From Escherichia coli (GTDB lineage Bacteria; Pseudomonadota; Gammaproteobacteria; Enterobacterales; Enterobacteriaceae): 5,842 nucleotides of DNA. The stretch lies in NCBI RefSeq assembly GCF_003334405.1, contig NZ_QOWM01000032.1; one strand, given 5' to 3'. Of this stretch, positions 2,889 through 5,842 are shown in pieces (the first letter of the stretch is position 1; each line of letters opens with the position of its first letter). The notes below the pieces were generated by a model. That model ran no database searches. It was given only the letters and a program-made list of their open reading frames with translations, and was not told the DNA's origin. Position numbers and translations under genes: made by a program.

Positions 2889-3323
2889 ATGATGAATAAA
2901 TTTAGTTATGTCAATCGTATGCTTCGGCAAGTTTTTGTTTTTAGTTTTATCACGGCCCCATCAATATCTTTATTTGTTGTTTTTATGTTTTTTTCGTTTA
3001 ATAACTCAATTGCTGGTTCATTTTTAAAAGAGGCCAGGGGGCTTATAACCGATACTCCTTCTGATAAGGTTAACGTCTGTCTTTTCGAAAAGGGCGTACC
3101 ACAGGATATGGAGTTGACAAACTCCACAACTGAACATGTATTAAAAAATAAATGTATAACAACGTTAGTTGATGCTGCTGACTGGCAGGAATCTGTTGAC
3201 GGTTCTATTCGATATTTTTATTGGTCGTCAGTTGTTATTGGCTTTGTGGTCTGGTTTACCTTTAATTTTTGTGCACTGGAAGAACTATTTTATCGTAGAA
3301 ACAGAAAAGGAGACGTTGAATGA
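2889..3323 (+). CDS. Two-TM inner-membrane protein with a predicted periplasmic loop of roughly 70 aa. It is an orphan, translationally coupled to the downstream nuclease.
   Basis: TM1 is VFVFSFITAPSISLFVVFMFFSF and TM2 is YWSSVVIGFVVWFTFNFCAL. Positive residues flank both termini (NRMLRQ and YRRNRKGD), which implies N-in/C-in topology with the central loop (2 Cys) in the periplasm. The stop TGA (3321-3323) overlaps the ATG of the nuclease (3320-3322). The RBS is weak (GAAGGG 2873-2878, 10 nt from the ATG), so the exact start (2889 or 2892) is uncertain. Confidence 0.7.
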   Translation: MMNKFSYVNRMLRQVFVFSFITAPSISLFVVFMFFSFNNSIAGSFLKEARGLITDTPSDKVNVCLFEKGVPQDMELTNSTTEHVLKNKCITTLVDAADWQESVDGSIRYFYWSSVVIGFVVWFTFNFCALEELFYRRNRKGDVE

Positions 3324-3835
3324 GGATTTTTTTAAGCGTAATTTTATTCCTGTTTACTGCTTTTCAGTCTGCAAATGCAGGTGGAATACCTGGTGCTTTA
3401 GCAGGAATACTTTCTACATTAAACCAGGAAATCCAGGGGAAAGTTATTCGTGTTCTCGATGGCGATACCATCGAAGTTTTACAGGACAAAAAGCCCGTCA
3501 GGATTCGCCTGGCAAACATCGATGCACCGGAGAAAAAACAGGCTTTCGGGCGCTGGTCAGCAAATCAGCTTAAAGCTCTGCTTGCAGCACAGCCTGTTAC
3601 GGTGACGTACACGCAGACAGACCGCTACGGACGCATTATCGGTCATGTGTTCACGACGAACGGCACGGATGCCAGCCGCTTTATGGTTCAGTCTGGCGCT
3701 GCATGGGTATATGAACGTTACAACGTGGATGAGTCATTACCGGCTCTACAACGGGAAGCGCAGGAACAAAAACGCGGTTTGTGGGTCGATGCAAATCCGG
3801 TTCCACCGTGGGAGTGGCGATACAAACATAACTAA
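3320..3835 (+). CDS. nuc: Secreted (periplasmic) thermonuclease of the staphylococcal nuclease (SNase) fold family, like plasmid RP4 ParB-type nucleases.
   Basis: AAGGAG at 3307-3312 lies 7 nt before the ATG. The signal peptide MRIFLSVILFLFTAFQSANA is cleaved before GG. There are clear block matches to S. aureus nuclease: LDGDTIEV vs IDGDTVKL, IRLANIDAPE vs FRLLLVDTPE, DRYGRIIGHVF vs DKYGRGLAYIY, and QKRGLW vs EKLNIW. The residues corresponding to the Ca-binding and catalytic residues (Asp, Arg, Asp-x-x-Glu, Arg) are present, so the enzyme is probably active. Confidence 0.93.
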   Translation: MRIFLSVILFLFTAFQSANAGGIPGALAGILSTLNQEIQGKVIRVLDGDTIEVLQDKKPVRIRLANIDAPEKKQAFGRWSANQLKALLAAQPVTVTYTQTDRYGRIIGHVFTTNGTDASRFMVQSGAAWVYERYNVDESLPALQREAQEQKRGLWVDANPVPPWEWRYKHN

Positions 3836-3850
3836 CTGATAGAGGTTTTT

Positions 3851-4255
3851 ATGGCTTTATCACCCAAAGAAAAGAAAGAGTTACAACAACGCTTCGAAAA
3901 GCAATTACTACCTGACCTTGATATGTCATTTGAACTAAATGGCGAAGTATATAAATTTAATTTTGATAAAAATGAGTCAGGTGACTATATCGATAGTTTT
4001 ACACAAGCAGTATGGGGAGGTTATCAGGATGCCGAGGAATGGGAAAAATATGGTAAACATCAGGAGACAGAATTACCTGAATACCCTGAACCAGTCGAGG
4101 GTTGGTGCGACTGTGATAAATGTAAGTCGATGATTTTTCATAAAGAGAAAAATATTTATGTTTGCCTCTCCTGCCATAAACAAACAGAGCCATTTCTTCC
4201 AATTGACTGGAACTCAAACGATTACGATTGGCTACCTTATGAAGATGAATACTAA
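3851..4255 (+). CDS. Highly acidic 134-aa protein with a C-terminal Cys4-type zinc ribbon. Its function is unknown.
   Basis: AGAGG at 3841-3845 lies 5 nt before the ATG. By my count it has 30 Asp+Glu against 14 Lys+Arg, a net charge of about -16. The cysteines C86/C88-x2-C91 ... C105-x2-C108 (nt 4106-4174) form two CxxC knuckles 13 residues apart. It is rich in Trp/Tyr and ends in the acidic-aromatic tail DYDWLPYEDEY. There is no signal peptide. Confidence 0.75.
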   Translation: MALSPKEKKELQQRFEKQLLPDLDMSFELNGEVYKFNFDKNESGDYIDSFTQAVWGGYQDAEEWEKYGKHQETELPEYPEPVEGWCDCDKCKSMIFHKEKNIYVCLSCHKQTEPFLPIDWNSNDYDWLPYEDEY

Positions 4256-4315
4256 TGCTGAATACTTCACAGTCATAATGGATGAAATGGCGACATAAGC
4301 ATTAAGGAGGCAAAA

Positions 4316-4528
4316 ATGAATGATTGGCTCTGTTCTTTACATGATTTAATCACAAATCCTGTATTTATGCTGTCTTTTTCAGTTTTTTGGGTGTCTACGG
4401 GAACACTTTTAATCAGAACTGTATTCAGAAAAATTAACATATCTGAAATTTGCATACTTTTTTTATTATTGACACTAATAATTCTGTCTTTATGTATTTT
4501 TGTAACATTAAAAGCTTCTTTTAACTAA
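4316..4528 (+). CDS. Small (70-aa) hydrophobic membrane protein with two predicted TM helices. Its function is unknown.
   Basis: A consensus Shine-Dalgarno TAAGGAGG at 4303-4310 lies 5 nt before the ATG. The hydrophobic segments are VFMLSFSVFWVSTGTLLI and ICILFLLLTLIILSLCIFVTL, separated by RTVFRKINISE. The coding DNA is extremely AT-rich (I count 20% GC in 4441-4500). Confidence 0.6.
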   Translation: MNDWLCSLHDLITNPVFMLSFSVFWVSTGTLLIRTVFRKINISEICILFLLLTLIILSLCIFVTLKASFN

Positions 4529-4571: not shown

Positions 4572-5147
4572 ATGCAATATGCATTGTTTGATGGATTTGA
4601 ACGAAAGTTTTTGCTGGATGCTCTTGAATTTGGTGTTCTGAAGGACTGGAAAGAAAATCCGGTAAAAGAACTTCCTGATATTGATGAATCTGTTCACCCC
4701 TTCCATGTCTGCTATGGTGGATATTTATTAAATCCTGGTGTTTCAGATTCAGATATTAGCAGAAAAATAAAAGACCAGACAGGATTCTGGCTGGCAGCTA
4801 TTGATGATACCCGCATGGATTGTCATTCAATAGCTTATTATGATATTCACACACTCCCTCTGATTTCGTGTGGACATCAAAAGATAGTTCCTTTTGCAGC
4901 GTTAATAAAAGCTGATGAATGCATCATTTCTAAAATTTCTGCGTATTCTGGTTTTGCCGTAACAGCCTTTTTGAGAATTAAAGACCAGGATATTGCAATT
5001 AATATACTTAACCGTGAAGGAATTTTTGCCTTTAATGGCTGTGAACGCAGGTTCAGACAACCTGTAGGTGAAGATAACTGGAAACAGGCAGTGTCAGAAG
5101 AACGTGCTATTCGCTGTGCAAACAGACTAATTCAGTGTAAAGGATAA
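4572..5147 (+). CDS. Hypothetical cytoplasmic 191-aa Cys/His-rich protein with no recognisable family. It lies immediately upstream of topB and is probably co-translated with it.
   Basis: The ORF track starts at TTG 4560, but ATG 4572 is preceded by GAGGG (4562-4566) at 5-nt spacing and is the more likely start. It has seven Cys and several His in motifs such as HPFHVCYGG, DCHSIAYYD, SCGHQK and FNGCERRF. Stop TAA at 5145-5147 is 4 nt before the topB ATG. Confidence 0.72.
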   Translation: MQYALFDGFERKFLLDALEFGVLKDWKENPVKELPDIDESVHPFHVCYGGYLLNPGVSDSDISRKIKDQTGFWLAAIDDTRMDCHSIAYYDIHTLPLISCGHQKIVPFAALIKADECIISKISAYSGFAVTAFLRIKDQDIAINILNREGIFAFNGCERRFRQPVGEDNWKQAVSEERAIRCANRLIQCKG

Positions 5148-5151
5148 CAAA

Positions 5152-5842
5152 ATGAGACTTTTTATCGCAGAGAAACCCGCAGTAGCAAATGATATTGTTA
5201 AGGCACTTGGAGGCAATTTTACCCGCCATGATGGCTGGTTTGAAAGTGATAACGCAATTGTGACTAACTGTTTTGGTCATATTATCGAATCACAGCCACC
5301 GGAAAACTATAATCCCGAATACAAAGCCTGGAAGGTTGAAACGCTTCCTTTACGTCTTTATCCCGTGAAGTATCAGCCTGTTGAAAGTGCAGCAAAACAG
5401 GTTAAAACGATTCTCGAACTTATCAGACGTGGAGACGTGACTGAAATTGTTCACGCTGGCGATCCTGATGATGAGGGACAGCTACTTGTTGATGAAGTCC
5501 TGGAATATGCCGGCAACACAAAACCCGTAAAGCGCGTTCTGATTAACGACAACACGCTTCCGGCAGTGAAAAAGGCGCTGGCAAATCTTAAAGATAATCG
5601 TGATTTCAAAGGGCTTTACCTTAAGGCGCTGGCGCGTTCAGTTGCCGATGCCGTCTATGGCTTCTCCATGACGCGTGCTTACACCATTCCTGCAAAAGCC
5701 AGAGGATATCAGGGCGTTCTGTCTGTCGGGCGCGTCCAGACTCCCGTTCTTGGCCTGATTGTGAATCGTACCCGTGCTAACCAGAACCATAAATCCAGTT
5801 TTTACTACACCATGACCGGAGTTTTTCAGCGTGGTGCTGATG
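5152..5842 (+). CDS. topB: DNA topoisomerase III (type IA), N-terminal Toprim region. It is 3'-truncated by the window edge and absent from the supplied ORF track because no stop is reached.
   Basis: AAGGA at 5140-5144 lies 7 nt before ATG 5152. The translation [12 protein letters not shown]...CFGHI...[21 protein letters not shown]...[10 protein letters not shown]...[20 protein letters not shown] is nearly collinear with E. coli TopB ([12 protein letters not shown]...[21 protein letters not shown]...[20 protein letters not shown]). This includes the Toprim Glu and the DxDxEG motif. Confidence 0.96.
   Translation, partial: [230 protein letters not shown]

Follow-up and report, generated by a model that had tools for sequence, protein, structure and literature searches.

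Acidic proteins of mobile elements and acidic protein tails are best known from two described settings. ArdA and Ocr, of plasmids and phages, are anti-restriction proteins regarded as acidic DNA mimics, and SSB carries an acidic C-terminal tail (SSB-Ct, ...DDDIPF) that serves as a docking peptide for several genome-maintenance enzymes, topoisomerase III among them. Here we have analysed a 5842-bp stretch of Escherichia coli DNA (contig NZ_QOWM01000032.1, hereafter the window) which holds, at 3851..4255 on the + strand, a gene for an acidic zinc-ribbon protein of 134 amino acids that a first-pass annotation, made from the letters alone, had proposed as a DNA mimic or anti-defence factor, or else as a mimic of the SSB tail. 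The window is IncX4 plasmid backbone. IncX4 plasmids are among the chief carriers of the colistin-resistance gene mcr-1 worldwide, and their backbone still contains several genes of no known role, of which this one is conserved in most IncX4 plasmids. According to our analysis the protein is probably cytoplasmic, is made of three modules and founds a small, previously uncharacterised family of Enterobacterales conjugative plasmids. We tentatively propose that it could serve the plasmid topoisomerase/establishment module as a dispensable accessory or adaptor, while the comparisons reported below leave the DNA-mimic and SSB-tail ideas somewhat weakened.

The gene, its protein and its family

The window is 100% identical to the E. 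coli plasmid NZ_CP070012.1, typed as IncX4, MOBP and MPF_T, and its whole gene set is on the + strand. The coding sequence of interest (protein WP_001218544.1 plus the stop codon) is present both in the list of open reading frames (ORFs) and in the RefSeq annotation; it starts 15 nt past the stop codon of a thermonuclease gene, and a Shine-Dalgarno sequence, GAGG (3842..3845, + strand), can be read 5 nt before its ATG. In homologues sharing 43-83% identity, frame and cysteines are both retained, and the ratio of nonsynonymous to synonymous substitution rates (dN/dS) of the whole gene against an 80%-identical homologue was 0.22. Because of the RefSeq annotation, the kept frame and cysteines and this ratio, we conclude that this is a true gene on which purifying selection acts. 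The copy in the window carries a minority allele at codon 78 (4082..4084, + strand), which is TAC (Tyr) where the alignment has a near-invariant Cys (TGC) in the motif CPEP; Cys78 is found in nearly all relatives, and the common IncX4 protein (WP_001218543.1, L017) differs from that of the window at this residue only (C78Y). The exact 61-nt sequence of the window around codon 78 was found in 19 of 254 PLSDB records of the IncX4 type.

The composition of the protein is as the first-pass annotation had counted it, with 30 Asp/Glu against 14 Lys/Arg and many aromatic residues (5 Trp, 9 Tyr and 7 Phe), together with 5 Cys, and we computed an isoelectric point (pI) of 4.42 and a net charge of -16. 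Of the 38 proteins annotated on the plasmid, this one has the lowest pI. Its charge density (-0.119 per residue) exceeds that of the second most acidic protein by a factor of two and its aromatic content (15.7%) is among the highest, so that the composition is a true outlier and no chance fluctuation. Fifteen of the 30 acidic positions are conserved, and most relatives have a pI of 4.3-5.4, an exception being P0031 (pI 7.5), in which the C-terminal tail is missing.

The family is small and narrowly distributed. A profile search over all 1.84 billion representative proteins gave 19 matches at E≤0.001, none of them with an informative domain, and a word-indexed search with the N-terminal domain (N-domain) alone added only two further short relatives. 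All members of traceable source are on Enterobacterales plasmids. In PLSDB, about 313-332 of 72,556 plasmids carry the family, mostly IncX4 and all from Enterobacterales; a scan of GTDB genome contigs found three loci, the family being nearly absent from the GTDB species representatives, and it was not found in a scan of viral contigs.

When the protein and its relatives were scanned against Pfam, NCBIfam, PHROGs and PADLOC, nothing significant came up (the PHROGs scan covered all 15 members of alignment A2, and the PADLOC scan the window protein and four relatives); the PHROGs matches were scattered, each of a single member, to families without relevant annotation. The best match in the family libraries was to a generic AccD zinc ribbon (Zn_ribbon_ACC; Pfam E 0.043, NCBIfam E 0.0034), far under the curated cut-offs. 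No ArdA, ArdB/KlcA, PsiB or Ocr family was matched in Pfam at E≤1, which agrees with the earlier remark that the protein does not resemble ArdA, ArdB/KlcA or PsiB. Searches of the PDB by single sequence and by profile gave nothing below E 0.3 (AccD appeared at E 0.66), Foldseek found a weak match to TFIIB (1pft, E 2.9) that is below significance, and no structural match was found for the N-domain. The profile and PDB searches recommended by the first-pass annotation thus matched no family with a known role, and that interpretation is partly supported, in that both the absence of known homology and the link to topB described below hold.

The public names of the protein are misleading. Its current RefSeq name is hypothetical protein, and many GenBank records call it "exodeoxyribonuclease V subunit beta" (for example CP057708.1, 10366-10767), a label that needs correcting. 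A RecB identity is unsupported: the PDB searches contained no RecB chain at E≤10, Pfam gave no helicase or nuclease family, no RecB model was matched in NCBIfam and the protein is just 134 amino acids long. We found nothing in the literature on DUF6012, a family that recurs next to this one, or on the protein accessions. A deletion study of an IncX3 plasmid (PMC11880322) probably does not cover the gene, because IncX3 plasmids, to judge from match counts, appear to lack it. The sequence family is undescribed, in that neither Pfam nor the literature covers it and its database name misleads.

Modules, conserved residues and the C-terminal tail

According to the alignments and to the predicted structure, the protein appears to begin with an N-domain rich in acidic and aromatic residues, to continue with a C4-type zinc ribbon of net basic charge and to end in a flexible tail that holds a D-[W/F]-L-P motif. 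The single-sequence AlphaFold2 (AF2) model had a predicted local distance difference test score (pLDDT) of 41 and the alignment-based model one of 75.9. In the latter, the N-domain (residues 1 to ~70; 3851..4060, + strand) has a pLDDT of 70-91 and is predicted to form a helix (5-22), a β-hairpin (27-34) and a second helix (49-66); F15, G44 and Y46 are invariant in it, and E16 and W55 are nearly so. The acidity of the protein is located in this domain and in the tail.

The zinc-ribbon core (residues 78-112; 4082..4186, + strand), with four short predicted strands, is the most constrained module, since its dN/dS was 0.085, compared with 0.29 in the N-domain and 0.58 in the tail. Its signature across the alignments is CPEP-x2-G-x-C-D-C-x-K-C-K-x-M-x2-H-K-x-K-x-I-Y-V-C-L-x-C-H-K-x2-E-P. 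The window protein has CDKC at residues 88-91 and CLSC at 105-108, that is CxxC-x13-CxxC, and an additional Cys at 86. C86, C88, C105 and C108 are invariant, and C91 is present in most members and missing from P0046 and P0047; because they are shared by all members, the four invariant cysteines are likely the metal ligands. In the AF2 model the predicted knuckles are C86-x-C88-x2-C91, after the strand 82-85, and C105-x2-C108, after the strand 102-105, which gives the two Cys knuckles on β-hairpins of the C4 zinc-ribbon fold class. The first-pass annotation had recognised this motif and the C-terminal sequence ...DYDWLPYEDEY, both of which are confirmed in the translation, but it had placed the ribbon at the C-terminus, where there is instead a tail of ~20 residues modelled with low confidence. 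The ribbon also has a conserved basic face formed by K90, K92, K98, K100, K110, H97 and H109, its five lysines being kept in every member compared, and its net charge is +1 to +4 in all members except two divergent ones. A pure DNA mimic fits poorly with these data, because the most conserved module is a net-basic ribbon with invariant lysines.

A ribbon with a basic face, encoded close to the nucleoid-regulator genes hha and hns, could also be expected of a small zinc-finger transcription regulator, either a TraR/DksA-like protein binding RNA polymerase or a DNA-binding protein that represses or activates genes of the backbone. We consider such a role improbable, given that the transfer genes and regulators named for an IncX4 plasmid from a Tn5 screen, an RNA-seq analysis of the PixR regulon and Cappable-seq do not include it (PMC8725589). 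As for the TraR/DksA version, the first-pass annotation had judged it weak and our results agree: zf-dskA_traR was not matched in Pfam, the knuckle spacing is 13 and not ~17, the helices of the AF2 model do not form a coiled-coil hairpin, and hhalign against an E. coli DksA sequence entered by hand gave a probability of 0.3%. Membership of this family is therefore rejected.

The modules are found in different combinations among the relatives. The N-domain accompanies the ribbon in most members, stands alone in P0053 and P0056 and is in tandem in P0052; the ribbon follows other N-terminal extensions in P0027 and P0032, and it is N-terminal, with a different C-terminal domain, in P0036, P0039 and P0040. 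In P0047 it is placed behind the first 43 residues of DUF6012 (Pfam E 7e-12). This last protein (L014, 8001-8363), seen on 11 contigs, has 120 amino acids made up of DUF6012 residues 1-43, a linker and a ribbon without C91, and its stop codon abuts the start codon of topB.

The tail (residues 113-134; 4187..4252, + strand) has a net charge of -6, a mean pLDDT of 42-50 over residues 121-134 and a pLDDT below 50 at 128-134. Its motif, EP-x2-[PR]-[IV]-...-[DN]-[WF]-L-P, is conserved, even in the ribbon-less P0053 and P0056, whereas the acidic end (YEDEY) is variable. In the IncX clade the tails usually end in an acidic run plus Tyr (...YEDEY, ...DDDDEY, ...DDEY, ...DESEY), while other members end in ...NDWLP (P0024), ...EPLLRL (P0031), ...EIKGQK (P0025), ...FEDE, ...PDKE or ...PENAL. 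These endings bear on the idea of a strict SSB-tail mimic, in which the acidic and aromatic C-terminal end would sit in the pocket that TopB or host SSB partners have for SSB-Ct. Like SSB-Ct, the tail is acidic and predicted to be disordered, topB is close by and IncX4 plasmids have no SSB gene of their own (according to the annotation of NZ_CP070012.1), and the acidic run with Tyr of the IncX clade goes in the same direction. Nevertheless, no member ends in Ile-Pro-Phe-COOH, the endings are diverse and the whole tail is lost in P0031, the tail is the module under the weakest constraint, and the conserved D-[W/F]-L-P is internal, so that we hold a strict mimicry to be improbable too.

Genomic context, dispensability and possible roles

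The first-pass annotation had pointed to a topB gene about 0.9 kb downstream. It starts at 5152, 897 nt past the stop codon and on the same strand, and the link recurs in rearranged contexts. We compared 13 independent lineages of the family (the contigs of P0056, L023-L025, are too short to judge topB), and in eight of them (L001, L002, L003, L004, L012, L013, L014 and L021) a gene for a type IA topoisomerase is found within 1.3 kb on the same strand; it lies farther away in L007 (6.6 kb) and in pB72C (L026; 12.5 kb, on the same replicon). From the background rate of TopB, whose genes are present on at least 5000 of the 72,556 PLSDB plasmids, we roughly estimate a chance adjacency within 3 kb at ~1% or less. 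In L002, L012, L014, L024 and L026, DUF6012 is encoded directly beside the family member, fused to it or no more than 1.5 kb away. The gene order differs between lineages (topB is upstream in L003 and L021), as do the backbones, which are IncX-like with a VirB-type system or IncI-like and equipped with a type IV pilus. The association with topB and DUF6012 therefore goes beyond a single gene order preserved unchanged. Moreover, individual modules are themselves linked to these genes: the N-domain alone is found 0.27 kb from a topoisomerase gene (P0053) and next to DUF6012 (P0056), and the alternative C-terminal domain of the P0036 type occurs on its own one gene upstream of topB.

These observations, together with a ribbon that is the most constrained part and is net basic in most members and with a tail end that is predicted to be flexible, are the reasons for our tentative proposal of an accessory or adaptor of the topoisomerase/establishment module. 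This module would be a DNA-topology and establishment block made of DUF6012, TopB, Hha, H-NS and sometimes SSB. The role of the basic zinc ribbon would be to make contact with nucleic acid or with a partner that is acidic, while the acidic N-domain and the D-[W/F]-L-P tail might dock on a partner protein or exert an auto-inhibition towards it, in a manner that can be likened to the acidic tails of SSB and T7 gp2.5.

Several data weigh against this proposal. No topB was found within 8 kb in L005 and L009-L011, the family is on only ~330 plasmids compared with at least 5000 for TopB, and the TopB proteins of these plasmids have C-terminal zinc ribbons of their own. The linkage to topB may partly reflect shared descent of a backbone segment and not function, and any interaction with a partner protein is putative. 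Furthermore, the IncX4 variant plasmid pX4 (NZ_CP047015.1, L028) keeps TopB without the zinc-ribbon gene, which indicates that TopB does not need it, and the published Tn5 screen and RNA-seq of an IncX4 plasmid list the gene neither as required for transfer nor as part of the PixR regulon (PMC8725589).

The variant pX4 also bears on the gain or loss of the gene. In it the zinc-ribbon gene is precisely missing, the nuclease and TopB are kept, and the 3' end of the nuclease gene leads directly into the ribosome-binding site of the following hydrophobic ORF (window 3815-4302 compared with L028 6776-6845). In the window, the two junctions are marked by 15-nt imperfect repeats, on the left TGGCGATACAAACAT (3815..3829, + strand), at the 3' end of the nuclease gene and matching 12 of 15 positions of the repeat at 4288-4302, and on the right TGGCGACATAAGCAT (4288..4302, + strand), a vestige of the nuclease 3' end that bounds the cassette. 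The gene therefore forms a single-gene cassette of ~470 bp between these repeats, and pX4 is without everything in between. Instead, pX4 has a gene for a 119-amino-acid protein and a DUF6012 gene inserted before the gene for a 191-amino-acid protein that precedes topB.

The experimental data on IncX4 transfer are consistent with this dispensability. In the high-density Tn5 screen of the IncX4 plasmid pHNSHP23, 18 genes were needed for transfer, namely 10 pilX genes, taxA, taxB, taxC, tsxA, cds4, cds9, cds10 (pixR) and cds16, and in the input library insertions were tolerated everywhere save in pir, tsxB and mcr-1 (PMC8725589). When we mapped the published deletion primers on the identical plasmid, cds4 and cds16 were located elsewhere, and hence the zinc-ribbon gene is not on the list of transfer genes. 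Besides, the PixR-activated pilX operon has been described as ending at taxB-trbM (PMC8725589). We infer that pHNSHP23 carries the zinc-ribbon gene, because it is near-identical to the common IncX4 backbone. Taken together, the gene is dispensable, since it is not needed for laboratory transfer and there is a natural variant without it.

These matings were made from K-12 into K-12 (PMC8725589), and an anti-restriction role would not show in them for this reason. A rival explanation is an anti-defence or establishment factor acting in the recipient, which would inhibit a host DNA-targeting system (restriction, a RecBCD-like nuclease or another) by DNA mimicry or by other binding. The outstanding acidity of the protein, kept in most relatives, would suit such a factor, and the narrow and patchy spread, the shuffled domains and the gain or loss as a single-gene cassette are typical of arms-race genes. 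In addition, annotations or domains related to restriction were found near relatives in four lineages, namely a Lar-domain gene directly upstream (L005), an Mrr_N/N6_N4 methyltransferase gene (L023, L024) and giant Eco57I/SNF2-type genes (L009, L026). However, neither the ArdA, Ocr, ArdB/KlcA, PsiB and Lar models nor the PADLOC and PHROGs families were matched, the best-conserved module is basic and not acidic, one relative (P0031) is neutral, and the family was not found in viral contigs. The charge density of the protein (-0.12 per residue) is also below that of Ocr or ArdA. The position of the IncX4 gene does not help this explanation either, since it lies ~15 kb from the presumed origin of transfer (oriT; inferred position), in a long same-strand array and outside any obvious leading region. 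Considering both sets of data, we regard an anti-defence role as unlikely.

The thermonuclease gene that precedes the zinc-ribbon gene suggests a further explanation. Nuclease inhibitors are often small and acidic, and the protein could be a cytoplasmic inhibitor, that is an immunity protein, of this presumably exported staphylococcal-type nuclease, in keeping with the 15 nt that separate the two genes and with a thermonuclease gene within 2.5 kb in five lineages. In L002 and L026, too, the nuclease gene directly precedes the zinc-ribbon gene, and in L012 the two are near each other. Yet eight lineages have no nearby nuclease (L003, L004, L007, L013, L014, L021 and L023, and L005, where it is 7 kb away), pX4 has the nuclease but not the zinc-ribbon gene, and the nuclease has a signal-peptide-like N-terminus, so its export would take place in the unfolded state. 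A chimera of both proteins, P0023 (E. coli, 135 amino acids), joins the N-terminal two-thirds of the thermonuclease to the C-terminal 37 residues of the zinc-ribbon protein; it appears to have arisen by an in-frame deletion between neighbouring genes, and we reject it as a functional fusion of the nuclease to the tail. Because of these facts, an inhibitor of the nuclease is the explanation to which we give the least credit, and we find it very improbable.

Returning to the accessory or adaptor of the topoisomerase/establishment module, a bolder version can be formulated, in which the family would be a new trans-acting partner of the topoisomerase III of mobile elements, or else an anti-defence family of a new type, with a ribbon that binds DNA and acidic arms that imitate it. 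In the partner version, the D-[W/F]-L-P/acidic tail and the N-domain would bring TopB to incoming or replicating plasmid DNA, or gate it there, together with DUF6012. Either version, if true, would be a mechanism not described for conjugative plasmids, and we think it decidedly doubtful that one of them holds. Should the protein act together with topoisomerase III and DUF6012, it would offer a first way into the unsettled question of why at least 5000 sequenced plasmids carry a type IA topoisomerase of their own. As matters stand, we see in it an ordinary accessory gene, uncharacterised so far, whose genomic surroundings are suggestive.

The surrounding backbone and comparison with known systems

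From 5' to 3', the window contains taxB, genes for a Cag12-family lipoprotein and for TrbM/KikA, two small hypothetical genes, the thermonuclease gene, the zinc-ribbon gene, a 70-amino-acid ORF, the gene of the 191-amino-acid protein and the start of topB. taxB, for the coupling protein, is at 7-1824 and the annotated thermonuclease gene (Pfam SNase, E 6.7e-24) at 3320..3835, both on the + strand. The 5' part of topB (5152..5842, + strand), identified by the annotation of the identical plasmid and by tblastn matches so annotated, ends at the window edge, and in the full plasmid topB is followed by hha and by an hns homologue. An Rfam scan of the window gave no match, and a scan of the + strand between the nuclease stop (3835) and 4820 saw no promoter-like or terminator-like site.

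The 70-amino-acid ORF (4316..4528, + strand) is unannotated and was read from the sequence; it is hydrophobic and membrane-like, it has a strong Shine-Dalgarno sequence (AAGGAGG), and its frame is kept in pX4 (L028, 6843-7091), where it has 82 amino acids and is likewise absent from the RefSeq annotation. The 191-amino-acid protein (4572..5147, + strand; also L028 8165-8740), of unknown function and encoded directly 5' of topB, has no Pfam or PDB match. It is named "DNA topoisomerase III" in some records, which is probably another propagated misannotation. hhalign gave a probability of 0.2% between this protein and DUF6012, so we consider them unrelated, and neither of them has a sequence relative in the PDB. 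The slot 5' of topB is occupied by at least three unrelated families, DUF6012, the 191-amino-acid protein and a family of ~200 amino acids (L003, L013).

Some other observations concern the remaining genes. The first of the small hypothetical genes (2550-2807, + strand) encodes 85 amino acids, of which residues 1-28 resemble positions 227-252 of the VirB11 ATPase (NCBIfam TIGR02788, E 5.6e-5, far under the curated cut-off), and it may be the remnant of a virB11 fragment. The second (2889-3323, + strand; 144 amino acids) has a hydrophobic N-terminal segment and weak, sub-threshold matches to TraP, an F-type pilus-stabilising protein (Pfam E 0.043, NCBIfam E 0.01), and its stop codon overlaps the start codon of the nuclease gene. 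The plasmid SSB genes found near relatives are unusual: that of L003 (9344-9703, 119 amino acids) encodes a protein without an acidic tail, and in that of L004 (5948-6490) another 18 residues come after ...EDDIPF, so that the Phe normally at the C-terminus would be buried.

With respect to known systems, the protein belongs among the many small accessory proteins of conjugative plasmids with a generic zinc ribbon, and its most interesting lead is that every one of its modules is repeatedly found together with plasmid topoisomerase III and DUF6012. It shares with the proteins of the Lar restriction-alleviation family (PF14354) a small size, a Cys motif and a mobile-element location, and a Lar-domain gene is directly upstream in L005; membership of this family was rejected, as hhalign against that neighbour gave a probability of 0.4% and Pfam gave no match. 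Small plasmid or host proteins with a C-terminal CxxC...CxxC are also the point of likeness to TraR and DksA. The generic C4 ribbons of AccD and of TFIIB/TFIIS/RpoM have, as this protein is predicted to have, two Cys knuckles on short β-hairpins, but all the matches to them are sub-significant, and Cys 78 and 86 and the sequence CPEP-x2-G-x-C-D-C are specific to the family described here. Like ArdA and Ocr, the protein is small, has a pI of 4.4, is encoded on a mobile element and is not essential for transfer; unlike them, it has its basic ribbon as the most conserved part, and neither profiles nor folds relate it to them. Finally, in comparison with SSB, it has neither the oligonucleotide/oligosaccharide-binding (OB) fold nor the terminal Pro-Phe-COOH, and its tail end is variable and weakly constrained. 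Nevertheless, SSB-Ct and T7 gp2.5 appear to share with it a module of the nucleic-acid-binding type joined to a flexible acidic tail with aromatic or hydrophobic residues, and its genomic setting has DNA-processing enzymes including topoisomerase III, a likeness that should be taken as a functional analogy only.

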